In this document: positions 49,622-64,000 of the stretch, piece after piece
How the letters are laid out: each line of letters starts with the position of its first letter
Position numbering within the stretch: position 1 is the stretch's first letter
IMG/VR virus record: IMGVR_UViG_3300020577_007233
Location: 125,593-189,592 of that record
DNA length: 64,000 bases
Source of the DNA: a virus
Lineage: Duplodnaviria > Heunggongvirae > Uroviricota > Caudoviricetes
Reading direction: 5' to 3' (one strand)
The notes under the pieces: model-generated
Database searches by the model: none
The model's input: the letters and a program-made list of their open reading frames with translations, nothing else
Told to the model about the DNA's origin: nothing
Position numbers and translations under genes: made by a program

Positions 49622-52600
49622 TCAGCGAGGATACGATTGTGATCTTCGCTCTAAATTCTTTGCTACCTGACCGCCTGGGCCGACTCCGTATGGTTGACCT
49701 GACATAGATCTCCATACTATATCGTTCCCACCTCCAATTACGGGAACTGATACAAGTCTTCCTTGTGGAAGCCTGCTAAGTTCTTTCTCTATGCAATTAT
49801 AGCAAGCCCCTGCAAGAGCGTCACAAAGGTCATCCGTTGTAACGTCTCCGTCTTTTCTTGGGTATACCTTAAATCCGCTATCTAGCCACTTTCTTTGAAG
49901 ATTTAGCATCTCATTCTTCAGTAGGAGATGATTAGGAATAAGCAGTTTGTTTTTGATTGCGATCTGATAAAGGTTGTCGTAGATCAAGTTTTTGTATTGC
50001 TTGCTATAGGGAGTCATTTTTGTAGGAATTCCCTTTTTTCTAAGCTTTGCAATGCTTGTCTGGCTGTTGAAATGGTCATAAGTGACTAATCCAAAGCAGA
50101 ACTTAAAGTTGAGAGAAGCAACATACTCGTCAACCTCATCAACTACAATCGGCTTTCCAGGAGAAGGCGACCAATACTTAATGTGGTCTACGACTATCTT
50201 CCAGTCTTTCTTGTGCTGCTCAAAGTCAAAGAAAACCTCCTTGTGAGCTATAACAAGAGCGTAATTATGGCTTGATGTTGCAGGATCTAAGTGGGCAAAA
50301 TAGGTTATGCCATGAAGCCCAAAATCTCTAAACTTCAAAGACTTATCAGAAAAACAGCTTTCAACGTCTTCTTCCCTAAAGAAGTTCTCGCCAGCAGTTC
50401 CTGAAAACTCGGCAGCAAATTCCATCTGGAACTTTTCTTCGGGCATGTCCGGGAAGGCTGCCATAAGGCCTTCTTTGGTCTGCATAGGATTGACCTGCCA
50501 AGTAGCAGCCCTGCAAACAAGCCTATGAGAGACTTGCTCATGAGAACTGTAAAGGTTGTAGAAGATACCCTCTTTACCTCTTGGCGACGAAAGACAAATA
50601 ATCTTTCCATCATAAATGGTTTCTGTTAGAAGGACACCATTCTCGTCATACAAAAACTTACCGTGTTCATTGAGTCTTGGAACACTTCTAACATACGTTT
50701 TCGTTGCAGGGCCAAGAGAGTTGTAAATAGCATCACCAGAAGAAGAACCTCCGGTATTTTTGTACAAACCAATCTCGTCCAACAAGAGAACATAGCATGA
50801 GATACCTACCAAGCTGTCTGAGTTACTGTGACCTGATCGAACAACAACTGAACCCAAACTTGGGGCAAAGCCTTTAGACCTAAGCTCTTCGTTGTGAATC
50901 TTGTCAGCAGGAGTAAGGAAATGAATTGCATCAGAAGTAATGCCTTCTGGGACAACCTTATCCTTGAAGTAGTCGCTCTTAAGAACCTTGTCTTTGATTT
51001 CTTTGAACAGAATCTGAGCCTGAGCCGCTGCGTTTGCTATGGTTAGTATTGTAAATGGAGTTGCAGAGCCAAGGTTGTAGATCTTGTAAGGATTACCTCC
51101 GGGAACTTCAAGAAGTCTCATTGCTTCGTATAGCGCAATGATAGAAGTAAGGAAGTCTTTACCGCTGTTATGGCAAATCAAGCCATTCGAAACAAAGTTC
51201 TGTAAATGCTCTTTATCTGAAACTTGTATATCGTATGTTCTTTTGATGCCGTTTTTCTTGATCTGAGTGATTGGAGAGAATATGGGAGCATCAAAATCAA
51301 TAGCTATTTCAGAGCTTTCTTTTGCTGTTTTCTGAAACTGCTCATGACCAATAAGCCCAATTTCTTCAACAAAAAGCTTGACATATGAGTTTTTCGAAAT
51401 AGTAAGAACATGCTCTGGTTTTGCGTTTATGAGCTTTGATTGTAGTGTTGCAAAAATTCCAAACCTAGACAGTAGATGCTGAATCTGCCTTGTAAGCAAA
51501 AGACTACTAAATGCTGCTTCTATTTTACAAGTAGTTCTAGACGTTTTTGTGTGCGTTGGAACTCCGTCGCAGCTAAAAATAGCCCTAAGATAGGACGCAA
51601 CAATACTCTTGGGGGAAAGAAAGATTCTTGCAGGAACGAACTTTTGCAAACCACTCTTATTCTTCAGTCCGTTAGCGGTAATCAGAGTTATGATATTAGA
51701 TTCTGTTTCTTCTTTCTTGGATGCCTTTTGAGCAACAACAAAGCTGTACTTTCTTTCATCAAAAGACTTGATGTTGTAGTTCTCTGCGCTGTCAATTTTG
51801 AGATCGTCCGAAATAGCTCCGATTCTCTTTTTGAAATCCTCAAGAACGCTTCCTTCGGCAAGCGTCGTTGCAACGTAGCATCCTGTTGAATCGCACGCTG
51901 CGCTGCTCATATATCCGAGAAAAGCCGCTTCGTCTTCGCAGATTTCTGTTGATGACCCAAAGAACGGCTGAACAGCAGCTATCGCTATTTTGTCCTTTGG
52001 CTTCAAGTCTTTTACTTGCACCCATCCGTTATCAGTCAGCATCGGATGGTTGTCTGTCGCTTCTATTTCGTGCCCAGATGCGGTTTGAATCAAATAAACA
52101 GCCCTCTTGCCTTGGCTTATGAGGTTGCAGTCATTGATGAGATTCATGGTCTTTGTTTTTTCATCGAAAGTCCAAGAATCAAGCTTTAGTTTTCCGTAAT
52201 TCCAAAGTTCACCAAGAGTCCAAATCTTACCAGTTTGAGGATCGACCACTTCTGCGCTTTCAGAAAGACATCTTCTTCCCCAAACAAGAACAAGCTCTCT
52301 AAAGTGGTTTCCTGACTTCCATTTATCAAGCATCGAGCCGTTGTGCGGATCGTTAAGAGCGTATTTTTCCATAAGAGCAAGATCTTCAGGAGTTAGCTCA
52401 ACGTTTTCATTTCCATCGCTTCCTCGATAGAAACACTTCAGCACCAGTTTTTGCATGTCGTATAGATTTGCTGGTGGATTGTTGTGAGGAAGTCCAAGAT
52501 ATTCTGGGCTTTCGACAAACTCTAGAATACTCGGCATTTTACCTATTGCCACAGCATCTGCGTTCATTTTTGAACGTAGCTTATCAAATCCAGACACAAC

Positions 52601-52636
52601 ATTATCAGTGTTCTTTGTTTTCTTATCCTTAGCCAT
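49622..52636 (-). CDS. terL: Terminase large subunit (intein-containing)
   Basis: Walker A VWGRR^SGKD split by an intein. Walker B LLLDEIG, SSPRGKEG coupling motif, RNase H-like HLDPATS, YDHFNS and DDLCDA. Confidence 0.9.
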   Translation of the reverse strand: MAKDKKTKNTDNVVSGFDKLRSKMNADAVAIGKMPSILEFVESPEYLGLPHNNPPANLYDMQKLVLKCFYRGSDGNENVELTPEDLALMEKYALNDPHNGSMLDKWKSGNHFRELVLVWGRRCLSESAEVVDPQTGKIWTLGELWNYGKLKLDSWTFDEKTKTMNLINDCNLISQGKRAVYLIQTASGHEIEATDNHPMLTDNGWVQVKDLKPKDKIAIAAVQPFFGSSTEICEDEAAFLGYMSSAACDSTGCYVATTLAEGSVLEDFKKRIGAISDDLKIDSAENYNIKSFDERKYSFVVAQKASKKEETESNIITLITANGLKNKSGLQKFVPARIFLSPKSIVASYLRAIFSCDGVPTHTKTSRTTCKIEAAFSSLLLTRQIQHLLSRFGIFATLQSKLINAKPEHVLTISKNSYVKLFVEEIGLIGHEQFQKTAKESSEIAIDFDAPIFSPITQIKKNGIKRTYDIQVSDKEHLQNFVSNGLICHNSGKDFLTSIIALYEAMRLLEVPGGNPYKIYNLGSATPFTILTIANAAAQAQILFKEIKDKVLKSDYFKDKVVPEGITSDAIHFLTPADKIHNEELRSKGFAPSLGSVVVRSGHSNSDSLVGISCYVLLLDEIGLYKNTGGSSSGDAIYNSLGPATKTYVRSVPRLNEHGKFLYDENGVLLTETIYDGKIICLSSPRGKEGIFYNLYSSHEQVSHRLVCRAATWQVNPMQTKEGLMAAFPDMPEEKFQMEFAAEFSGTAGENFFREEDVESCFSDKSLKFRDFGLHGITYFAHLDPATSSHNYALVIAHKEVFFDFEQHKKDWKIVVDHIKYWSPSPGKPIVVDEVDEYVASLNFKFCFGLVTYDHFNSQTSIAKLRKKGIPTKMTPYSKQYKNLIYDNLYQIAIKNKLLIPNHLLLKNEMLNLQRKWLDSGFKVYPRKDGDVTTDDLCDALAGACYNCIEKELSRLPQGRLVSVPVIGGGNDIVWRSMSGQPYGVGPGGQVAKNLERRSQSYPR
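51167..52270 (-). mobile_element. Intein (368 aa) with LAGLIDADG-type homing endonuclease domain
   Basis: Starts with CLSESAEV, block B EIEATDNHPML, block E YLRAIFSCDG, ends TYDIQV..NFVSNGLICHN, followed by Ser (+1). Confidence 0.93.
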
Positions 52637-52638
52637 TA

Positions 52639-53169
52639 TTACCTCAAGTCTGAGGCTATCTTATAGACAATCCACGTGTCACCGCCATCATAAGTAAAAA
52701 ACTTCAATATGTCTATAGCGCCAGAGTTTGTTGAAAAGCTTATCGCAAGGTGCGAACTTGTTTTGAAAGTGCTTGGGAGCGTTATTGTATGACCGCCTGA
52801 AGACTGCTCAACAAGAAGAGTAATCTCAAAAGCATTAGTAACGCTAACGTTGCTCAGTATGGTCAAAGAGACATCACCTGTCAATGTCATCTTTTGAGTA
52901 TTTCCTCCGGTTGTACTAATCTGATAGTCACCAGAAACCTCTCCTATGTCATTAAAACTTAGATGACACTCGTTGAGTAACGGAGACTTTAGTTCTCCTT
53001 GGTGGAAATCTGCTTCGAGTTTTTCTACGCCAATCTTCAGTGGCGTTGCAACACCGTTGCCGCTATAGAGCGGCTTGGCTTCTTCTTCTATTCCAACGTT
53101 ACCGTTGTTCAAATAGAACAAATCGTTATGGATTTGGGCAGGAGTCTTATCTCCTATTTTAGCACTCAT
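52639..53169 (-). CDS. Small virion protein with fibre-type C-terminal beta domain
   Basis: TLTGDVSLT...ITLLVEQSSGGHTITLP...GAIDILKFFTYDGGDTW pattern. Confidence 0.6.
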   Translation of the reverse strand: MSAKIGDKTPAQIHNDLFYLNNGNVGIEEEAKPLYSGNGVATPLKIGVEKLEADFHQGELKSPLLNECHLSFNDIGEVSGDYQISTTGGNTQKMTLTGDVSLTILSNVSVTNAFEITLLVEQSSGGHTITLPSTFKTSSHLAISFSTNSGAIDILKFFTYDGGDTWIVYKIASDLR

Positions 53170-53182
53170 CTATACGTCCTCA

Positions 53183-53971
53183 TTACAGGTTCTCCCATCC
53201 TATTTTATCCCAAGGAAGCGTTATATCCTTCATTAATAGGCCTATGTCTATCAATCTAGCCCTTGAGTCGCCTATTACTGTTATCGTATATCCAATCTGT
53301 TCAGAAAGAATGGCATAGGTCAAAGGAACCTGCAAAAATTGATCTATAAGGAACTCGTCAAGGTTTTCGTAACCATACGCCTCGCCATATTCTCTAAGAA
53401 CGTGTTCGTTCAAAGCCCTGATAGCATTGTACATTGTCTGCTGGTTATCTAGGTGCTTGAAAATAATGTAAGCATACGTTCTTCTCAAGAAGCTTTCTAG
53501 CTCGGTCTTGTGTCTTTGCCTTGCATTAACATCAGTATTTCGCAGCGTGTTAAACATGCAAATCAAAGGTCCAAGTGATTGCTTTCCAAGATCATAAGCT
53601 TCAGAAATCCTCTCGGTTATTACCCTATAGTCATATGTTCCTATTCTGTGACCGTCATCAGGATTGGGGCCTCTTGTTGGCCTAAAAACAGGCGGAGCAG
53701 GCGGCGCTGGAGGAGTTATCGGAGGAGGAGAAGACGACAATGCATACGTTACCGTAAAGATATCGCTTGGACCCGACTCTTCAAAAGTCTCCAAATCATC
53801 AACAAGATAACGTGTAACTATAGAAACGAAATAGTAATATGTATTACCAAGAGTAACCGTCGTATCAACAAAGGTTGTTGTTGTGCTTGTTCCAACAAGA
53901 GCAAAACTACCAGGAAGCCCAGTAGTTGAGCGATAGATTTTGAATAGATAGAAGTCTCCCGGTGTTGACAT
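53183..53971 (-). CDS. Protein beginning with FN3 strands C-G, then a Pro linker and a helical domain
   Basis: MSTPGDFYLFKIYRS...FVDTTVTLGNTYYYFVSIV. GGAG RBS lies inside the upstream gene's final codons. Confidence 0.75.
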   Translation of the reverse strand: MSTPGDFYLFKIYRSTTGLPGSFALVGTSTTTTFVDTTVTLGNTYYYFVSIVTRYLVDDLETFEESGPSDIFTVTYALSSSPPPITPPAPPAPPVFRPTRGPNPDDGHRIGTYDYRVITERISEAYDLGKQSLGPLICMFNTLRNTDVNARQRHKTELESFLRRTYAYIIFKHLDNQQTMYNAIRALNEHVLREYGEAYGYENLDEFLIDQFLQVPLTYAILSEQIGYTITVIGDSRARLIDIGLLMKDITLPWDKIGWENL

Positions 53972-56900
53972 TTACGAACTCCAAGTTATGCTTATGTTTC
54001 TTTCGTTATAGTTTGCTGCTGCTGCTATGTTTGTTGGAGGATTCAGTGTTGGATCGTCGGCTACAAAGGTAACAGCAATAACACTTGACTTTGCAGATTC
54101 ATTACCAAATACATCAACCGCTGACACCTGGTAGTAGTAAGTCTTTCCAATCCTAACAGCAGTATCATAGAAGAATGCGTCCTTGGAGTATTTCTTCCTT
54201 TGGAAGTTTGCTGGATTTGGATCAACAACTTGGTTTGTTATCTTTGACTTGTAAACGATATAGTGACTAAAATCTGGCTCCTGGTTTGGACTCCACGTAA
54301 GCTTGATGTACATTCTTGTTGCAGTAGTATATGTTGTACTTCTAACGTTACTGTAAAATCCGTAGTTCAGATTGGTCGGTGTTGCGGGGGCCTCGGTTGG
54401 AGTATAATCATTTGGAACTTCAACGTAATCGAATCTCCTATCGACAGCTTCATAGTCACTAGAAGACGCATTAAGTCCCACATACTGCGATGGACTGTAA
54501 ACTCCCGAAACATAGCCATATTCAGCAAATAGCTTAAGTCGATACGCTTCTTCTTCGCTTGTTGGGTACTCGTCTGTTCTTGTTGGGCCATAGTCAACAA
54601 GCCAATGCTCGTTTCCAGGAACTAGGTAATTTGCAAGATCGTGCGGAGAATACGCTCCTTGATCGCTAAACAAGAAAGAAGCCATCCTTGATAAGAAAAT
54701 ATCGGGCCTTGCTTTTTCTCCCATAAGGTGAGCGTTGGGATATCTTTCCATGTAAACATCTAACAAATCAAGAGAGTTCTTAACTTGCATCTCGTTTGTT
54801 GATGCTCCAAAGAAATCAAGACCTACACCTCCGGCCCAGTAAACATCGAAAACAATATCCATTTCGTCGTAAAACTTCTGCATCAAGGCAGAGTCGGTAA
54901 AGTCTATAGTTCCATACGTTGACGTTGGACCATATGCAACAGAACTCGTAAGAGCCAAGTCTCCGTAACCTTGATAGAAAATGAACGTGGGGATTTCTTC
55001 TCCGAGTCTATTGAATTCGCTTATCGTGGCAAGCATGTTCGGATAACTTGTCCAAGGCGATTGGTTTCTATAGATAGGCGTAACTATTTGAGGGTAATAG
55101 TTCAGTCCGCCCGTATTCTGTCCAAGAGTGTCCCAAACCATGTACCTTTCATAGCCTTTGTTGAAAACATTGGTTATGACAGCGGCTCTGTATATCGCAT
55201 ATCCAGTGCTAGTTATTTGATAGGACGCATTCAACTGAAGAGGCGTTGATCCGTCAAAGTTTGAATTCAGATTTTCAAGGTAAACAGGTCTTGGGTCTTT
55301 AGAAAGCAATGTTGGGAAGTTGGCTTGTAGATAATCCCTGAGAGGCTTAGTTGTTAGAACCCACCTAGATGGATCTCTTGATATTCTAACGGAAACAGTA
55401 ACAGAAAATGACTCTCCTCTCTGTAAGCAGTGGTTGTTAAATGTATTGTTTATCCACTCAAGAGATGTCTTGCCTCTGCCAATTAGATACGAAGACGCAT
55501 CTGAACGCCCTGAAGTTTTCTCTTGAATGAATTTGTCGTTGTTAACAAAATCTGCGATGACGCACACTGTTATAGCGTGAGTATCGGTAAGGTATGTGGT
55601 AACGGGAGCAAATCTGTTAGTTGGATATGTTAGGGCGTTATTTGTTGTGGTATACGCCTTTGAGACATGCATCGCTGAACTGTCAATGAAAAAACTGTTC
55701 TGATTGTACATTAGGGAGTTATTTCTTCCCAAAAAGACATAATCAAGATCTATAGAGCCAAGCCTTTGAGCAGCAGATCCTACTGTTTGAGCTATTGGAC
55801 CATCGTTGGTGTAAACAATCGTAATATCAATACCATCAGTGGTATCAGCGGTTGTGATTGTTGTTTTTATGTAGTCACCAACATTGTTCAAAAGATTTAG
55901 ATAGCCAGAACCAACATCTATGGTTCTCGCTCCATAAGACTGTCCAATCAGCCTCTTGTTCGAAAAAAGATCCGAGTCGTCTTGATGCAGTATGTTTGGA
56001 TCATAAACTTCAAGATACAAATTGTGAGAATCATTCGGAGTTGCGTTTGCGTTTGTTGGTCTATTCCTGGCAATAGAAGTCGCAACAGCAATTACAGAGT
56101 CTTCGCTTGCTGAGTTTGGGAAAAGAGTCAAATGAGGAACGGCCCTAGTTGCGCCAACCGACCAGTCAGCAGAAGCTGTTCTTATTGCTTTGGCATAGTC
56201 TTGATTTACATAAGGAACGGTTGTCGCATATGCAATTAGGTTTGGGTACTTTTCCGAGTCATATGCAAACTTTCTTTCAACAAAAGTATCTCCGATTTCA
56301 ACATTGTAAAACTGATCATTAGCACCAACGGTCGTTAGTAACCAGCTCTCATTATCAATAGGCGACCCGTCAACGTGAGCAAAACGAACTCCAGAATCGA
56401 ATTCAGGAAACACGTTATTTGATGTGTTTGTAAAAATAAGCTCGTTGTCGTATTTGACAAACCTACACATTACACCTATTCTGTTTGAAACAAACAGATT
56501 GTTAACGAACTCGTAACCACTACAAGCAGAACCTTGCTCCGTAAAATCCCAAACTCCTATCAACGAAGAAACATTTGACCACAAAACCGTTGTATTGTTT
56601 GCCGCTTTTACGGCGTTTTTTACTCCAATCGTGGAGTTTGAGCAAAATACATTTCCCATCAAGTTGTTGTATCTAAGTTCTAATACGTTGTTAACTATTG
56701 TTAGTCCGTCAATGTCTCCGCTAAGAGTTATTATCCCATACTGAGAACTCATAACTGGTGAAGCCACAGAAACCTTCTGTCCTCCGCCCGCTCCTGTCAT
56801 GTAATTGCCATCAAGCCTAATGCTTGTTGATTTTTCAAAAATGTTGCATCCTTTGGAAAGAATACTTGAAATGACAAACACATTTGAGGATGCGTATGTT

Positions 56901-58267
56901 TTGATTGCTCCTCCATTATGAAGGGTTGATGTTGCGTAAAGAAATCCATAATTGCTTGAGTCGTTGTAGTTCGTAGAGCTACTAACTGCTGCGTCTAGGT
57001 AGCACCATTGTATAGTCGCCATATCAGCCCCATCAGACTCTCCTAGGTAAATCAAAGGAGAATTGGGATCGTATATTGTCGAAAGATCAAAGTTTCCAAT
57101 ATCAACGCCTGAAACAACAATGTTTGTTCCGCTAAGATTGAAAACCGAATATCTGCTAACGTAGCCAGTAGTTCCGCCTCCTCCGATAATCATTCTGTTT
57201 AGGTAGATACACTCAGATGCTAGAGAAATTGAGTAAATTCCATGATAACAACCTATGAAACCGCAATTGTGAAGAGCAATATTTGACGCATCTTCAATCT
57301 GTATTGCATAAACATTGCTTGAGGAGGTTGGAGTTGCAGAGCTTTCTGTTGTATTGTAATCTGTACGAACGCCTTGGAACGTTATGTGTTCAAAGTAAAT
57401 GTTCTTAGTACCTGAGTTTATGCTTATCATTGGGATAGGAGAGCCTGGGCTAGCAAGAGCGCCCGAAGTCGCCGGCATAATCTTGAAAACTCTTTGGTAG
57501 TTATTATCATTAACCGTAAAAACAAGATTGTTCACGGTAATGTTGAGCGTATTTGCTATCTTGGCTAGGTACTGTCCAGATGCGTTGTTCAAAACGATGC
57601 GAACTCTTCCGTTTACTCCTCCAAGAGAAGCCGTAGAACGGAAGTTGTTTACCCATGTCATTGCGTTCTCAAGAGAGCTAAAGTTCTTGGATGCACCTGT
57701 TGCTGGGTTGTCAGAAAAAGATGGGTTTACGCTAATAGTAACCCACGAATTGGCGCTGTTTACGGCGTGTCCAGAGTTATTGATTTCAGCCGTTGTCCAT
57801 GATGTATAAATCGTTGGCGCGGTTACTGCTATGGTCGTTGTCGTTGAAGAACTTTCAACGCCGTTATGTATAATCGTCAAAGTTATCGTAAATGGAGTTC
57901 CACCGTTATCGTGGTAGTAGGTATATGCAGCGTTCAGTCCTTGTTGTTCAGAATTTGAATCGCCGCTTCTGTGACAAAAGCCTGTGTTATCAACTCCGCA
58001 ATCAATAGTTGGTATAGGGAATCTCGTCTTGCTTTTGAAGTTGCCCTGAACAAGGGTTGTATTTGTTAGTGCTGTTCCTAGTGACTCGTACCTGTTGTTG
58101 TCTTGATTTCCGTTTACGCTTGGCGTTGGATCTCCAAAGTCCCAAACGAATACACAATCTTGACTAGATTCTCCGTCAAAGTTTGAAGCAGCAGCATTGA
58201 CATGAACCGTAAAAGGCGCAAATCCTGAGTTGTCCGAAGTGACTGTTATTACTGGTACGATTGCCAT
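53972..58267 (-). CDS. Large spike/depolymerase-like protein: PKD - right-handed beta-helix - beta-sandwich/GH-like module - FN3 - half FN3
   Basis: APFTVHV...FVWDFGD...YTY (PKD). IYFEHITFQG, NIALHNCGFIG (beta-helix). IKLTWSPNQEPDFSHYIVYKS...TYYYQVSAVDVFGNES (FN3). Start moved to ATG 58267. Confidence 0.7.
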   Translation of the reverse strand: MAIVPVITVTSDNSGFAPFTVHVNAAASNFDGESSQDCVFVWDFGDPTPSVNGNQDNNRYESLGTALTNTTLVQGNFKSKTRFPIPTIDCGVDNTGFCHRSGDSNSEQQGLNAAYTYYHDNGGTPFTITLTIIHNGVESSSTTTTIAVTAPTIYTSWTTAEINNSGHAVNSANSWVTISVNPSFSDNPATGASKNFSSLENAMTWVNNFRSTASLGGVNGRVRIVLNNASGQYLAKIANTLNITVNNLVFTVNDNNYQRVFKIMPATSGALASPGSPIPMISINSGTKNIYFEHITFQGVRTDYNTTESSATPTSSSNVYAIQIEDASNIALHNCGFIGCYHGIYSISLASECIYLNRMIIGGGGTTGYVSRYSVFNLSGTNIVVSGVDIGNFDLSTIYDPNSPLIYLGESDGADMATIQWCYLDAAVSSSTNYNDSSNYGFLYATSTLHNGGAIKTYASSNVFVISSILSKGCNIFEKSTSIRLDGNYMTGAGGGQKVSVASPVMSSQYGIITLSGDIDGLTIVNNVLELRYNNLMGNVFCSNSTIGVKNAVKAANNTTVLWSNVSSLIGVWDFTEQGSACSGYEFVNNLFVSNRIGVMCRFVKYDNELIFTNTSNNVFPEFDSGVRFAHVDGSPIDNESWLLTTVGANDQFYNVEIGDTFVERKFAYDSEKYPNLIAYATTVPYVNQDYAKAIRTASADWSVGATRAVPHLTLFPNSASEDSVIAVATSIARNRPTNANATPNDSHNLYLEVYDPNILHQDDSDLFSNKRLIGQSYGARTIDVGSGYLNLLNNVGDYIKTTITTADTTDGIDITIVYTNDGPIAQTVGSAAQRLGSIDLDYVFLGRNNSLMYNQNSFFIDSSAMHVSKAYTTTNNALTYPTNRFAPVTTYLTDTHAITVCVIADFVNNDKFIQEKTSGRSDASSYLIGRGKTSLEWINNTFNNHCLQRGESFSVTVSVRISRDPSRWVLTTKPLRDYLQANFPTLLSKDPRPVYLENLNSNFDGSTPLQLNASYQITSTGYAIYRAAVITNVFNKGYERYMVWDTLGQNTGGLNYYPQIVTPIYRNQSPWTSYPNMLATISEFNRLGEEIPTFIFYQGYGDLALTSSVAYGPTSTYGTIDFTDSALMQKFYDEMDIVFDVYWAGGVGLDFFGASTNEMQVKNSLDLLDVYMERYPNAHLMGEKARPDIFLSRMASFLFSDQGAYSPHDLANYLVPGNEHWLVDYGPTRTDEYPTSEEEAYRLKLFAEYGYVSGVYSPSQYVGLNASSSDYEAVDRRFDYVEVPNDYTPTEAPATPTNLNYGFYSNVRSTTYTTATRMYIKLTWSPNQEPDFSHYIVYKSKITNQVVDPNPANFQRKKYSKDAFFYDTAVRIGKTYYYQVSAVDVFGNESAKSSVIAVTFVADDPTLNPPTNIAAAANYNERNISITWSS

Positions 58268-58279
58268 AGGTTGTCTCAA

Positions 58280-60298
58280 TTAACGAAAAACGATTCTCCT
58301 AAAGTATCTCCAAGCAAATTCTTGAAGATCATCTTTTTGTCTTATCCTAAACCAATAGAACTCGCCTCTCTCAAGAAGTTCGGTGTTTAAGCTTGTGTAA
58401 CGAACCTTTCGTCCTTCATAGTTACTTGTTATACCATTTCCGTTGAAAGGCCTGAAATCCCCATTGTAATCCTCAAAGGACCAATTGGTGATATCACTAA
58501 ACGTATCCTTTGATAGTATCGGCCCTATCCCTTCAAAATCCTCATAGTTACGAGCAACTTGAAGTTCTATATGATAGAACCTAAAATCACCTGGGTTTTG
58601 CTCAAGGTAGTCCTCAAATATCCACGAACCCTCTGTTTCTATGTTTGAACTAACTATGGAAGAAACAAGAGTCTCATTCTGTAAAGTATCAAGAACGATA
58701 TCCGATACCTTTGTTGATGTTGCCGTTAGATACTGATTAAAGTTTGGGTATGCAAAGTCAAACCGAGTGGCATTTCTGTCAACAACAAAATCAATGAACT
58801 TTGTTGTCAAATTGACAAAATCATTCTTCCAGGATAGATCGTCAAACTCTGAGTACAACGCATCAAATGCGTAGTCAAGCTCTTCTTGAACAACTTCATC
58901 AGATCCGCTAACAATGGTATCTCTTAGATCTTTAATGATGTTTGACTTCCTAAATAGATAACAGACAGATTCGGCATAGCACGTTTCCATCATCTTCCAT
59001 GCTTTTACCGGATCTATCAACTGAGATTCTTCAAATGGAACAGGAAATGCAAAAACCGCAAGTAGGTCGCCAAAACAAGCCATACTCGAATTGAGTAAAG
59101 GTTGCGAGTACACAAAGGCCTCTCCGAGAGAGGCTCCTCTAAAAAGGGTATCCATAAAGGGAACAGGCCTTAGAAAAGAAGAAGTATCAACACCGGACAT
59201 GCTTCCGGCAGCAGCAACATACCCCTCCCTTATTGCCAAAATAGGCCATGAACGAGCGTCAAGGTCTCTTATTGTCAGTCCGCCATCAAAGTCTGCGTTA
59301 TAGAAGAAGGCTCTTGTATTTGCCGTTGTTCTGAAGTAGGAAAGAGAACCCCTATCGGCTCCCCAGCCCCAAAAGAACGAGTCGTCTTCTATCTGAGAGA
59401 AAAAAGCATCCCTTCCAGCCGGTGGACGAGAAGTGCCTTGAATAGTTAGCCCCAGTCTTGATGAGTAGTTATCTTTGAAGTCAATAAGCTCATCTGTGTA
59501 TTCTGAAGCTCCCGAATAGGTGTAGGAAGCGTATGGGTCAAAATAGAACTTACCCGTTGTCTCTAGTCTGCTTTTTGCGGCTTCAATATTGTCAAACCAG
59601 ACAGAAGTAACTATACTTGGACCATCAATCCTAGTACATATGAGAGACTGTATGGCGTCATAACCGTTGAACCTTTGAAAAACCTGTCTATTGTATATTG
59701 GGTTTTGAATGTTCTTCTCAAATGGATAGAAGATCCTAGCCAAACGAGAAGTTGTTGATATGACATCTGAACCGTCCCTAAAGCCGCCTGGAACGTAAGG
59801 CATAAGGACTATGCCATAAACGCTTCTGTTTCGAACAGGAGCGGATGTTATTTTTTGGCGCAGTGGATCTTCTACCTCTGCTTGAAAGGCTATGTAGTCG
59901 GTCAATACTTCAATGTTCGAACAAGGAATCGAAACTAATTGGTCATCATCAAGGTCATGCAGTTCTTGATACCGCAATGCGAGAGACAGGCTCTCGGAGT
60001 CGTCTTGACGGTAAACGCAGATAATGTTGTCCTTTGAAAGTATCGCTGTAGGATTTGCAATCGTCTGTTGATTGTCCCCCGTCGCTCCCTGGGTCGAAAA
60101 AAAAACACAGGTGTCTGAGCTTGGAGAAGACCTATTACCGAAAATGTCAACAGTTACTATTTGATAGCAATATGTGTGACCGATTTCGGCAGACGTATCG
60201 TTAAAATCATTTGTAGTAGAAGTACCAACCAGAACGAAAGCTTCGTTGTTGTCGCTTCTGTATATCTCGTAATATGCAAAATCTGAAGGCAAGGCCAT
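58280..60298 (-). CDS. TIGR03790-like protein with N-terminal FN3 strands C-G
   Basis: IICVY..DD.ES..LA..YQ, IVLM..VP, TRIDGP, FYFD, FWGWG, G..AAAG...V...FL.P..F...L..G.SLGEA......L.S.M..FGD. AGGAG RBS. Confidence 0.7.
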   Translation of the reverse strand: MALPSDFAYYEIYRSDNNEAFVLVGTSTTNDFNDTSAEIGHTYCYQIVTVDIFGNRSSPSSDTCVFFSTQGATGDNQQTIANPTAILSKDNIICVYRQDDSESLSLALRYQELHDLDDDQLVSIPCSNIEVLTDYIAFQAEVEDPLRQKITSAPVRNRSVYGIVLMPYVPGGFRDGSDVISTTSRLARIFYPFEKNIQNPIYNRQVFQRFNGYDAIQSLICTRIDGPSIVTSVWFDNIEAAKSRLETTGKFYFDPYASYTYSGASEYTDELIDFKDNYSSRLGLTIQGTSRPPAGRDAFFSQIEDDSFFWGWGADRGSLSYFRTTANTRAFFYNADFDGGLTIRDLDARSWPILAIREGYVAAAGSMSGVDTSSFLRPVPFMDTLFRGASLGEAFVYSQPLLNSSMACFGDLLAVFAFPVPFEESQLIDPVKAWKMMETCYAESVCYLFRKSNIIKDLRDTIVSGSDEVVQEELDYAFDALYSEFDDLSWKNDFVNLTTKFIDFVVDRNATRFDFAYPNFNQYLTATSTKVSDIVLDTLQNETLVSSIVSSNIETEGSWIFEDYLEQNPGDFRFYHIELQVARNYEDFEGIGPILSKDTFSDITNWSFEDYNGDFRPFNGNGITSNYEGRKVRYTSLNTELLERGEFYWFRIRQKDDLQEFAWRYFRRIVFR

Positions 60299-60311
60299 TA
60301 TATTCTCCTTG

Positions 60312-61121
60312 TTATACTACATAACCTGCTTCTTGCAAGTTTGAAAGGGCAATGTAAAGCTTATCGAAGAGTCTGTTTCTTTGCGTTCCTGACAATCCGG
60401 AAGTTTGACCCAAGAATACACCAACCTGCGGAACGTTGTACTTATTGTATACTCGGAACATATTCATGAAGTGTTCTTTGTCGTAAATAAGACTTGATCT
60501 AAATCCTGTTGGGAACTTAATGTTGTTTCTCTCAAAGATATTGTCATAGATTATAGGATAATCCAAGTAGGTCATCCAGAACGCTATTGGCTTATTCGGA
60601 TTTGCGGCTTGACATCCTTTGCAGAAATATTCCGTATTCGCAACATCTATGGCTCTAATAAGAGCATTTGGGTCTTTGATACTGTCTGCGCTTACTCCGT
60701 ATCTGTAAAGAGATTCTGCGTAGCTATTGTAGCCGTTTCCTACAGCAAATGAGTTGCCGTCAGTAGGATACCATCCATATTGAACCGGGATCTGAACATC
60801 AAGATGGAAGTTCGCATTCAAATCAACAGGCGATTCCTTGAAGCGATAGCCATGAACAAGATTCTGTCTGTTTGCGCAGAAAGTGTTATAGTTGCCAACA
60901 ACAACATTAGGCCAAACCGCTTTTGCGGGAATACCTACAGTGTCCCAAATTCCATAGTCAACAACCATAGAATTGATTGTTTGAGTCAAAAAGGCTCTCT
61001 TAACGCTTGTGCTATCGCTGCCGTAAATATGAGAATAAAGTTGGTTGGTAGGAATTGTAACCCCATCCAATGGTTGGCAGGAATTGCAACTCCATCCAGA
61101 TCGGTTAAGCCGGAGACCCAC
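60312..61121 (-). CDS. C-terminal continuation (+frameshift) of the 60986-64000 protein
   Basis: No RBS. Becomes protein-like exactly at the 29-nt duplication (PLDGVTIPTN). Confidence 0.65.
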   Translation of the reverse strand: MGLRLNRSGWSCNSCQPLDGVTIPTNQLYSHIYGSDSTSVKRAFLTQTINSMVVDYGIWDTVGIPAKAVWPNVVVGNYNTFCANRQNLVHGYRFKESPVDLNANFHLDVQIPVQYGWYPTDGNSFAVGNGYNSYAESLYRYGVSADSIKDPNALIRAIDVANTEYFCKGCQAANPNKPIAFWMTYLDYPIIYDNIFERNNIKFPTGFRSSLIYDKEHFMNMFRVYNKYNVPQVGVFLGQTSGLSGTQRNRLFDKLYIALSNLQEAGYVV

Positions 61122-64000
61122 TGAGCATATGTTTGAACTCCATCAAAAGTTGTTGTAGAGTATCTTGGATCGGCAGTGAGCCATCCATGCCACTGTAGCC
61201 TGTTATTGAAGTCTCCTCCCGCAAGCGTTGCTCCGCCTTCATAGTCTGGATCGACATATACAGGATCAGGGATGCCTCTAGCTCTAAGAAGAGAAGAAAG
61301 AGTTGCAAAGAACGTTTGCATTCTTGATTTCGCTTCCGCTCTTCCGTTTACCGTCCACAAGCAACTATTGCCATTGGAAAGCCTGTCGTTGATATGAGCA
61401 AAAGGACGAGTTGTTGAACTGCCCCAACCATAGGCTCCAAAGTTCTGAGGCCAAAAGGCATACCTAAATGGAGTGTTTGGTCTGTTCGTGACCCAGTAAT
61501 TCCTGTATGCTGTAATAGTGTCAGCAGCGGTTGTTGCTCTTTGTTCCATAGTCCTTGCGTCTGTATCTGAGAAGCAAATAACATCGTTGATCATTGGATA
61601 AACGTTTGCTAGGTCAAACACTGGATGAGCAAAGTCTGTGCTTGTCCAACCGCCGCCAGTCTGCAATATAACCTTTGGAGGACTCTTGAGCGAAGGAGAT
61701 GGAAGATAAGACGCAGAAGGTTCTCCCCAAGCCACAACAATTTTACCCTCGACAACAGAAGATGTTGCGGAAACATTTGTTGGGGGATTGAGAATAGGAT
61801 TGTCAGCTATGAACGTTACTTCATAGGGGGTTGGAGCAGAAGAATTGCCGTCAACGTCAACCGCTACAATCTTGTAGTAATACGTTTCTCCTGGGAAAAC
61901 CTGATTGTCATTAAAGAACGAAGTCTTGACATATGACTTGAGTTGATATGGTCTAGAAAGATCAACTTGACCGTTTACTATGGTTCCTTTGTATACAAGG
62001 TAGTGACTAAAATCTGATTCAGTATTACTATCCCAAGACAAAGCTATTGTCTGCTTTTTAAGGTCGGGATACTTGACGCTTACAGCCCTGTCTGTTATAG
62101 CGTGACGAATGTTGGTTGGAGAAGAAAGAGGACCGTATGAGGCGGGCTTTGTGTCATAAACAAATCTTCTGTCTGCGGCAAGATAAATTGAAGAAGTTAC
62201 TGGATAAACGTTGACGTTAGAGTTAATGTCTCCGTCAAGATCAACATGACCAACAACATAGCCCCACCTTGCGTGCGCTGCCATTCTATTCTTAACGTAC
62301 CAGTGAGTATAGGTTCCGTATGGGAACTGAGTCCTATATTCATTCATGTAAATGATTACGATATTTTCATTTCCTGGCAATATGTAGTCGGCGATATAGT
62401 GCGGACTTGTTGGATTTGTTGAAACGCCATTACCAGACATGATGTATCCGGCTGAATGAGTGCAAGCTATATCATCAGGCGAAACTTCTGTTATGATTCT
62501 GGTTCCTTGGAATTGAGTATCTATGAAAGTTAGGAACTTAGAAGTGTGGTTCTGAGAATCAAGGCCTGCTGAATATGCGTCAATTCCAAGAAGATTAGAC
62601 TTGGCATGATAGTTTATGAGATTCCACTCGTCAATAGCCATATCAAAAGCTATTGGGTCTCCTTGGTTCATGTATGTAGAGGCTTTTGAAATGTCCTTAT
62701 AGTCAGGATTCCATCTCTTGTGAACAATGCTACCGTATCCTTGGTAAAAGCCAAAGATAGGAACTTCTTGAATAATGTCTCTAATCATGTAGAACGTGCC
62801 CTGGAAAAGCTGAGGGTTGATTGTAAAGTTTCCAGGAATGCATGAGCTAACAAAGCTATAGCATGCATCATAATGCGGTCCCACAGAAGAATGAGGGAAT
62901 TCTCCATCACTGTCCACTAGCGGAGAAATCATAAAGAATGGGTAGTTATTGATGTTGTTGTTTGCGTACAAACCAGAGGTTGCCCAAATCAATTGCCTAT
63001 CATAACCAAGAGAATTATAGTTGTATCTTATCTTGTTTGCCCACCAAGCCCATCCATATAGGGCGGGATTTTGATTTGCCGTATCTTCGTAACCATGAAG
63101 ACCAAAAGGCTGTCCATTACTAAGGATTGCCGGAACCATTGGCTTAATTGGTCTTGGGTCTTTCATGAATTTGACAGAACCAAAGTTCTGAGCAAAGTAT
63201 GTCTTGTATGGTTCAAGAGTAAGAACCCACTTTCTTGGATCTCTTGTTATTCTAACACAGAACGTAGCTTGATATGTCTGACCGCTTGCTAAGCAATCTG
63301 CATTCGCCACTGAAATGTCGTCTGCCTGAACATCTGAACCCCATTTCCATCTATTGATGGCGCAGGTGTTCCAAGCGCCAGTAATTTCTGTTAGATGCTT
63401 ATGCGTAGCAATTTGATCGTACTTAACGGACACGCCCATACCATACGTTGATCCAACCAGATTAACTGTTGGGCTGAACTTGTCAAACGGATAATTAAAT
63501 CCCCCTCCAAAGAACAATGAGAAATATGTATCAATTTCTACTGATGAAGAGTCGTGCATGTTGTAGACATAGGCAAACTTAGGACCAATCAACAAGCCGT
63601 CTATATAAACGCTTCCGAGTCTCTGTCTTGGATCTCCGTCTACTTGTCCGCTTGGACCATCGTTGGTGTAGGTTACTGTTACATCATAACCGTCTGGTCT
63701 GTTTGTTACGGAATATGAGGAGTTGATATAGTTGCCATAGTTGACCGTAAGATCGTAATAACTAACTGCCCAACGATTGCTTCCTGAAGTAGTGCCGGTT
63801 GCATTGATATTCGATGTTGGTAGAGAACCGAAGCCCTGAACAACAAAGCCGGCTAGTCCCAAAGTGTTTCTACCATAACTCTGTATGGCGTTAGCAAGAT
63901 CGGAAACAGTAGAGTACGAGGAAAGAGGAATATCTATGAGAGTTTGAACGGTATCATTCTGTAAAGTAAAGACTCCTCTAAACTTCTTGTTTCCGCTATC
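60986..64000 (-). CDS. Spike-like protein, 5'-truncated by the window: beta-sandwich/GH-like module - FN3 - half FN3 - second GH-like domain
   Basis: Frame is open to position 64000 (DSGNKKFRGVFTLQ...). Colinear homology to the C-terminal half of 53972-58267. Confidence 0.7.
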   Translation of the reverse strand, partial: DSGNKKFRGVFTLQNDTVQTLIDIPLSSYSTVSDLANAIQSYGRNTLGLAGFVVQGFGSLPTSNINATGTTSGSNRWAVSYYDLTVNYGNYINSSYSVTNRPDGYDVTVTYTNDGPSGQVDGDPRQRLGSVYIDGLLIGPKFAYVYNMHDSSSVEIDTYFSLFFGGGFNYPFDKFSPTVNLVGSTYGMGVSVKYDQIATHKHLTEITGAWNTCAINRWKWGSDVQADDISVANADCLASGQTYQATFCVRITRDPRKWVLTLEPYKTYFAQNFGSVKFMKDPRPIKPMVPAILSNGQPFGLHGYEDTANQNPALYGWAWWANKIRYNYNSLGYDRQLIWATSGLYANNNINNYPFFMISPLVDSDGEFPHSSVGPHYDACYSFVSSCIPGNFTINPQLFQGTFYMIRDIIQEVPIFGFYQGYGSIVHKRWNPDYKDISKASTYMNQGDPIAFDMAIDEWNLINYHAKSNLLGIDAYSAGLDSQNHTSKFLTFIDTQFQGTRIITEVSPDDIACTHSAGYIMSGNGVSTNPTSPHYIADYILPGNENIVIIYMNEYRTQFPYGTYTHWYVKNRMAAHARWGYVVGHVDLDGDINSNVNVYPVTSSIYLAADRRFVYDTKPASYGPLSSPTNIRHAITDRAVSVKYPDLKKQTIALSWDSNTESDFSHYLVYKGTIVNGQVDLSRPYQLKSYVKTSFFNDNQVFPGETYYYKIVAVDVDGNSSAPTPYEVTFIADNPILNPPTNVSATSSVVEGKIVVAWGEPSASYLPSPSLKSPPKVILQTGGGWTSTDFAHPVFDLANVYPMINDVICFSDTDARTMEQRATTAADTITAYRNYWVTNRPNTPFRYAFWPQNFGAYGWGSSTTRPFAHINDRLSNGNSCLWTVNGRAEAKSRMQTFFATLSSLLRARGIPDPVYVDPDYEGGATLAGGDFNNRLQWHGWLTADPRYSTTTFDGVQTYAQWVSGLTDLDGVAIPANHWMGLQFLPTNFILIFTAAIAQALREPF
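61043..61100. repeat. Imperfect 29-nt tandem duplication causing a frameshift
   Basis: ggttggtaggaattgtaaccccatcca(at) versus ggttggcaggaattgcaactccatcca(ga): 3 mismatches in 27 nt. Confidence 0.85.

Follow-up and report, generated by a model that had tools for sequence, protein, structure and literature searches.

A fibronectin type III domain divided between adjacent megaphage genes: a probable non-covalent clip between two virion-associated proteins

Genomic setting and anatomy of the split domain

The window analysed here is a stretch of 64,000 nt from the IMG/VR virus record IMGVR_UViG_3300020577_007233 (Caudoviricetes; positions 125,593 to 189,592), in which a fibronectin type III (FN3) domain is divided between two genes: strands A-B (the AB half) lie within a giant spike-like gene, A, and strands C-G (the CG half) open a downstream gene, C. 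A second pair of the same kind is formed by genes D and E. The record comprises 256.8 kb and is estimated to be ~51% complete; since relatives reach 494 kb, its source is a megaphage of roughly 500 kb. All split-FN3 genes are encoded on the minus strand; a tail-fibre-like gene and the large terminase gene (TerL) lie downstream of them, and the gene order is A, a frame-shifted continuation of A (60312-61121), C, D, E, F and TerL. In the genome, A is open for 3,194 aa, as far as a frameshift stop; its intact form in relatives has ~3,420-3,440 aa. The features of the locus are given in Table 1.

The N-terminus of C carries DF..YY.IYRS, LVGTS, the tyrosine corner Y.Y.IVTVD and strand G, and the split position is the B-C loop of FN3. 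A profile built from 12 CG halves matched the solved Fn3-like protein 3mpc_A (E 4e-7), with the match confined to chain residues 34-82 of 103, the portion after strands A-B; the Fn3-like chains 5z06_A and 5g56_A were matched as well. Because the profile finds solved Fn3-like domains, and only past strands A-B, the split in A/C is, as far as sequence can tell, real and beyond chance. Pfam gave no fn3 match at E <= 0.1 for A, B, C or D, and the sole match at that threshold within residues 6-59 of C was a weak one to GH85_C. In the family member P0014 the FN3 is intact within one gene, ahead of the C body, which identifies the two pieces as halves of a single ancestral domain.

Much of what the first-pass annotation of this DNA had described was confirmed. 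By sequence and by the CG profile, an orphan AB half does continue into an unrelated domain, and a CG half does open gene C; the strong AGGAG reported before gene C is present, the halves are ~1.4 kb apart as claimed (1,417 nt), and the motifs said to be common to the CG halves of C and E are real. The AB half lies where it had been placed, but the boundary given for it, 61716, was one base off. As for the claimed ~470-aa inserted domain, ~466 aa do lie between the halves, but not as one open reading frame (ORF) in the window.

Table 1. Features of the A/C and D/E loci (window positions)
Feature	Position	Strand	Remarks
Gene A, 3' part, giant, spike-like	60986..64000	-	5'-open in window
Intact FN3 of A	61799..62104	-	equals strands at residues 20-97 of the AF2 model of a relative
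Linker IADNPIL between FN3s, in A	61790-61810	-	directly before AB half
Orphan AB half (FN3 strands A-B) of A, NPPTNVSATSSVVEGKIVVAWGEPS	61715..61789	-	ends in strand-B tryptophan
Barrel domain, part 1, frame of A	61073..61714	-	glycosidase-like TIM-barrel (by predicted fold)
Imperfect tandem duplication, 29 nt, 2 copies, 4 differences	61041..61098	-	frame shift inside barrel
Barrel domain, part 2, frame of ORF 60312-61121	60312..61043	-	ends ...LQEAGYVV, stop 60312-60314
AGGAG ribosome-binding site of gene C	60305..60309	-	six bases ahead of ATG
Gene C, whole	58280-60298	-	CG half, then TIGR03790-like body
CG half (FN3 strands C-G) at N-terminus of gene C	60083..60298	-	gene C begins MALPSDFAYYEIYRS
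Gene C body	58280..60082	-	gingipain/caspase-fold residues 86-420, then helical region, C-terminal beta domain
Gene D, spike paralogous to A	53972..58279	-	ends in intact FN3 and AB half (...NISITWSS, 53975-54049)
Gene E	53183..53971	-	starts with paralogous CG half (53741-53971)

Conservation of the split in relatives

Homologues of C were collected from viral and metagenome contigs, giving 140 loci with 96 distinct C bodies. The commonest arrangement is dUTPase, C without an FN3 piece, E without an FN3 piece, F and TerL. Nine of the 96 distinct homologues carry a CG half with an adjacent AB half, four a CG half alone and 83 neither; none has an AB half alone, and within C-family loci an AB half was never seen without a CG half immediately downstream. 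Relatives with C bodies 46-75% identical to that of the window retain the split. A search for longer proteins fusing an A-like protein to the C body returned generic FN3 matches only, which is weak evidence of absence.

The sequence separating the two halves varies between relatives. At the A/C junction of the window, the AB half is followed by a barrel domain, a stop, AGGAG and ATG; in L009, which has no barrel, the AB half ends ...IRIAWN and is followed by TAA, 20 nt containing AGGAGAA, and an ATG in another frame. In L023, whose C body is 46% identical, a beta-helix protein of 1,350 aa ends ...LTLTWS, after which come TGA, T and ATG, the barrel gene of L003 and L010 ends in TGA-TAA, and in L005 a lone in-frame TAA separates the A and C frames. 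At the D/E junction of the window the ATG of E directly follows the TAA of D, in frame, and L003 and L010 have TAA-T-TTG instead, which places the start in the +1 frame. Every gene downstream of a junction is equipped with a Shine-Dalgarno sequence and a start codon of its own. The AB half is C-terminal, with no barrel after it, in D, in A of L009 and in the L023 protein. At several junctions TGG-AG(T/C), the Trp-Ser codons of strand B, provides the GGAG before the downstream start, a ready-made signal that would make fission easy at exactly the B-C loop. These differing frames, stops, spacers and starts, along with the relative that has no barrel, exclude readthrough or frameshifting as the means of joining the halves, in line with the earlier statement that simple readthrough cannot rejoin them.

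The two splits of the window had also been regarded as independent occurrences, which proved wrong. Residues 81-758 of A are 29% identical to residues 793-1433 of D, which is a paralogue of the C-terminal ~1,400 aa of A, FN3 and AB half included, and the CG halves of C and E are likewise paralogous; the sequences thus point to one ancient split that was then duplicated. Both AB-bearing D and L023:3947-7999 contain right-handed beta-helix-like segments (with a weak Pfam Beta_helix match in L023), which would fit polysaccharide depolymerase spikes. A further variant of the arrangement is found in L003:10001-10462, L004 and L083, where a pair of CG halves stands in tandem in C without intervening A-B strands; with E counted, there are three would-be sockets (two in C, one in E) at the locus of this lineage and two hairpins (in A and D).

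Selection and coupling of the halves

Compared with the window, the AB halves of relatives are 57-74% identical, the CG halves 63-77%, the intact FN3 52-65% and the barrel 39-59%; by this measure both halves match the intact FN3 in conservation and exceed the barrel. The ratio of nonsynonymous to synonymous substitution rates (dN/dS) was taken from L003 versus L010, the only pair with synonymous sites unsaturated in every segment, and amounts to 0.17 for the AB half, 0.07 for the CG half, 0.08 for the intact FN3, 0.15 for the barrel and 0.06 for the C body. To judge by these ratios, both FN3 halves are under purifying selection, and the FN3 hallmark residues are all retained in both.

In the C-body tree, the state of the CG half changes at least six times, and each change in AB adjacency follows it. 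The sister of the window in this tree and its closest relative, L002/L025 (about 81-82% identical), has ribonucleotide reductase (RNR), dUTPase and C, with A and the CG half both absent; A and the CG half are also absent from another close relative, L008/L030. A 494-kb relative (98% complete) contains exactly one orphan AB half and one orphan CG half.

Structure models and crystal precedent

The FN3-AB-barrel-CG region of L005 was modelled in AlphaFold2 (AF2) by reading through its single TAA, using a 26-row alignment (mean predicted local distance difference test score, pLDDT, of 84). In the model, the AB strands comprise residues 109-116 and 121-127 (pLDDT about 80), the CG half scores about 90, and the linkers from the AB half to the preceding FN3 and to the barrel fall below 50. 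Single FN3 domains align over 95-99 residues within the model range 103-675 at a root-mean-square deviation (rmsd) of 2.3-3.5 Å, among them 3mpc_A (Z 13.1, 95/96 residues), 2nzi_A (Z 12.9, rmsd 2.3 Å, chain 194-290) and 7zxk_B (Z 13.1). Because only the AB half (about 27 residues) and the CG half (about 68 residues) can supply such a match, the model is of one FN3 with the barrel looping out from its B-C loop. The AB half is thus predicted not to be integral to its neighbouring domains: it packs with the CG half, off the barrel, behind the two low-pLDDT linkers. As a control, C was modelled alone (built from 41 homologues, pLDDT 88), and here 2nzi_A aligned over just 68 residues (chain 220-290, Z 8.1). 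The CG half in this model consists of strands C, C', F and G only (pLDDT about 80), with strand E unformed, and is tethered by a floppy linker (residues 69-75, pLDDT below 50). As regards the conditions under which the first-pass annotation would have withdrawn its reading, these models come out in its favour, although they give no measure of the stability of the CG half alone.

Residues 9-70 of the C-alone model superpose on domain 2 of BppA from phage Tuc2009 (5e7t_B 230-285) with Z 8.1 and an rmsd of 1.3 Å over 56 aligned residues (20% identity). In Tuc2009, BppU ends in a 25-residue hairpin that completes one beta-sheet of BppA domain 2, residues 230-286 (PDB 5E7T; PMC4742702), and the composite domain resembles titin 2NZI (PMC4742702), which is also matched by the L005 composite model. 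The 5E7T chains are not among the PDB matches of the CG profile at E <= 1; the resemblance to BppA/BppU is structural. In both systems a hairpin of ~25 residues on one protein of the phage adhesion device completes, or here would complete, a beta-sheet in the incomplete sandwich (~57 residues) of an accessory, carbohydrate-directed protein. The terminal hairpin donor of the Tuc2009 type has its counterparts in D, A of L009 and the L023 protein, whereas A of the window is a variant: its hairpin is internal, with the 466-aa barrel after it, unlike the C-terminal hairpin of BppU. Other differences are that the half-sandwich is N-terminal here but C-terminal in BppA, that the two genes are adjacent here and the split is the visible fission of one recognizable FN3, and that the host phage is a ~500-kb megaphage rather than a siphophage, with the composite domain known here from sequence and predicted structures.

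Joining of this general kind is familiar from chaperone-usher pili, where an incomplete Ig-like subunit is completed by a strand of another chain (donor-strand complementation), giving very stable non-covalent joints. There, the C-terminal G strand is missing and is given by an N-terminal extension, whereas the N-terminal strands A-B are missing here, and no chaperone or usher context is present. Dutta, Batori, Koide and Koide (2005, Protein Sci 14:2838) reportedly described high-affinity fragment complementation of an FN3 domain, in an artificial construct. Full-text literature searches returned nothing relevant on natural split FN3 or on strand complementation in phage receptor-binding proteins, and the Tuc2009 crystal structure is the only phage structure in which we could find a comparable joint established by experiment.

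The barrel domain and its frame break

The insert between the halves is a (beta/alpha)8 barrel (residues 139-598 of the L005 AF2 model). It matches beta-amylase 1ven, GH164 6t75, GH53 1ur0, GH35, GH56 1fcu and the C-terminal domain of PgaB at Z 14-15, with 265-319 residues aligned to the glycoside hydrolase structures, and is therefore described here as glycosidase-like by predicted fold; Pfam gave no match for it. In the window, a frame break divides the barrel between ORFs 60986-64000 and 60312-61121. The frame is shifted by a tandem duplication whose copies (61070-61098 and 61041-61069) each encode LDGV(A/T)IP(A/T)N in their own frame and differ by one synonymous and two Ala/Thr changes, as expected of two alleles. 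Seven relatives (L001, L003-L006, L010 and L011) have the barrel in a single frame, with the duplication absent, and the two barrel pieces of the window align to them gap-free. The 29-nt duplication is either a true lesion that truncates A or an assembly collapse of two alleles.

Members of the barrel family also occur as stand-alone proteins of 430-520 aa. Two of these, P0064 and P0071, start with their own linker and AB half, and most stand-alone homologues are without one. P0064-like genes lie among unrelated genes (L076:7998-9578 and L075:7998-9578), and the two contigs with stand-alone AB-barrel proteins hold no orphan CG half, the lone CG-profile match there being an intact FN3-like domain. 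The argument, made in the first-pass annotation, that tolerance of a large insertion at the break shows the split to be functional fails on two counts: the barrel is an autonomous family, and L009 has the order AB-stop-ribosome-binding site-ATG-CG without it. Since stand-alone barrels exist and this relative has none, a fairer description is that a gene or domain was fused behind the hairpin, where a gene boundary already existed; most likely the barrel was added there, or it came as an AB-barrel unit.

The gene C body and neighbouring genes

Gene C had been called TIGR03790-like. Its body does cover nearly the whole of that profile (positions 1-314 of 316, E 4.2e-12), but its score of 46.2 bits is below the curated cut-off of 67, and at the level of profile comparison it is a distant relative of TIGR03790 and not a member by the rule of NCBI. 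In the AF2 model, the fold of the body is of the gingipain/caspase type (RgpB 4ief_D Z 21.9 and Kgp Z 21.1, each over about 290 residues; separase about 13), with the fold residues 86-420 corresponding to window positions 59039-60043. Among the 41 homologues no His is invariant or nearly so, and the sole invariant Cys is C126; the His/Cys dyad of clan CD (gingipain, separase, CHAT) is not evident in C. In the absence of an invariant or nearly invariant His, protease activity of C appears doubtful, and the body may be a non-catalytic structural protein of caspase fold that this megaphage group conserves beside its terminase. Other modules take the position of the CG half in distant relatives (L047:4234-7971, L053:2-3244 and L062:1263-4535), covalently joined to the N-terminus of the C body: a beta-helix, a metallophosphatase with a long Ser-rich linker, and a repeat protein.

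The phage GenBank collection gave no match to the locus as DNA or protein, and searches of Pfam, PHROGs and NCBIfam yielded no useful match for A, the barrel, D or E. The TerL-like gene of the window (49622-52636, 1,004 aa) may hold an intein. The terminase-region gene L023:11026-14091 encodes 1,021 aa with intein and LAGLIDADG Pfam matches, and its equivalent after C in L022 (L022:11035-12930), where the gene order is the same, encodes 631 aa without either match; the ribonucleotide reductase of L023 also bears an intein.

A probable joint between two chains, and its alternatives

We consider it probable that the split FN3 acts as a clip which non-covalently holds together two virion-associated proteins translated separately. 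Trans-complementation had been proposed in the first-pass annotation, and it stands as the best-supported reading, though not by way of independent occurrence or insertion tolerance: it is favoured because the split is conserved while frames and stops change, because both halves are under purifying selection, because AF2 builds a composite FN3, and because Tuc2009 provides a precedent. In the proposed joint, A would be a giant accessory spike, directed at host glycans, with depolymerase-type modules and a TIM-barrel end, presenting the AB hairpin; C would be the virion-anchored partner, with a conserved gingipain-fold core and strands C-G offered on a flexible N-terminal tether. Strand B would pair with strand E and its Trp fill the core, so that the two chains bind and one FN3 sandwich is completed across them, fastening A to C. 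The D and E pair may act likewise, D carrying the hairpin and E the socket. The barrel would occupy the would-be B-C loop, behind the hairpin and at the gene boundary that already existed. C and E are conserved proteins of the phage group; the C body carries covalent N-terminal modules in other lineages, and in that of the window C and E would instead have A and D attached through the split FN3.

Several observations weigh against this joint. Gene A may be defective in the window, because its barrel is frame-broken there, and the P0064-like stand-alone AB-barrel proteins have no adjoining CG gene. AF2 was given one artificial joined chain, and it tends to complete familiar folds. A phylogenetic sign test of coupled AB/CG gain and loss gave p 0.125, which is not significant, with few independent events; as A and C are adjacent, block replacement alone could explain their joint gain and loss. 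No AB half lies near the CG half in four C homologues (the L040/L022 and L041/L084 lineages), and a 169-kb fragment (25% complete) of one CG-only lineage contains none. The numbers are also unmatched in L001 (one AB and two CG halves, within a 55.9-kb fragment that is ~11% complete) and in L003 (two AB and three CG halves, C bearing two in tandem). We conjecture that oligomeric spikes or distant partners could explain the lone halves and unequal numbers.

Some of the same observations suit an arrangement in which the AB hairpin serves its own chain, as a barrel appendage or an extension of the FN3, and the CG half is completed by another protein or by self strand swap. AB half and barrel travel together in P0064 and P0071, away from any CG gene; some C genes carry a CG half that has no AB half in its vicinity; L003 has its tandem CG halves; and FN3 scaffolds can swap N-terminal strands (4m6a is among the matches to the C-alone model). 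We nevertheless regard this arrangement as unlikely: D, A of L009 and the L023 protein terminate in an AB half and have no barrel for it to serve, most stand-alone barrels have no AB half, AF2 holds the AB half off the barrel (linker pLDDT below 50) and packs it with the CG half, and in C-family loci the AB half is always followed immediately by a CG half. It is quite unlikely, too, that the halves are relics of a tolerated gene fission, in which an ancestral fusion broke in the B-C loop and the pieces persist through linkage and weak constraint, acting as linkers without assembling. Such a history is compatible with the intact form in P0014, with the ease of fission that the GGAG within TGG-AG(T/C) offers and with the existence of CG-only lineages, but the split has persisted between lineages with C bodies 46% identical and between paralogues 29% identical, with hallmark residues kept in both halves at a dN/dS of 0.07-0.17. 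A half-sandwich of five strands that had an exposed core and no use ought to erode or be lost, the state seen in L002 and L008, which have neither A nor the CG half.

The halves might finally be joined as one polypeptide or mRNA, by readthrough, frameshifting, ribosomal bypass, an intron or an intein, and the lone in-frame TAA between the frames at the D/E junction of the window and the A/C junction of L005 invites the idea. We consider it highly improbable. Readthrough, frameshifting and bypass were rejected because frames, stop codons (TAA, TGA and TGA-TAA) and spacers vary between relatives and every downstream gene starts from signals of its own (Shine-Dalgarno sequence and start codon). 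Stop-codon reassignment was dismissed on the grounds that TAA is the normal terminator of most genes in the window. An intron or intein was rejected since the barrel ends with a stop followed by a ribosome-binding site, has stand-alone homologues and is without intein junction residues; Rfam gave no intron or other RNA family in 53000-64000 at E <= 0.1.

Implications for megaphage virions

Beyond the single joint, we tentatively raise the possibility that the AB hairpin and CG half are a portable plug-and-socket code across the megaphage group, with plugs that are C-terminal, internal or N-terminal (the last on stand-alone AB-tagged barrels) and paralogous pairs (A-C and D-E) that are possibly mutually orthogonal. 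If so, the conserved proteins of the virion would bear a socket or several, and enzymes or spikes could be swapped by recombination with no need to re-engineer the virion.

A clip of the kind proposed would be a clear case of natural gene fission within a small domain, kept since the pieces reassemble, a principle so far known from the crystal structure of a single lactococcal phage. With pieces of about 25 and about 70 residues, the halves would be potential small protein tags if their binding is tight. Little is known of how very large phages display their varied host-recognition enzymes on a particle that is itself conserved. Splitting a domain between adjacent genes and re-forming it between chains would offer a simple rule of attachment, recognizable from sequence alone, by which pairings of spike and anchor would become predictable in uncultured phages.

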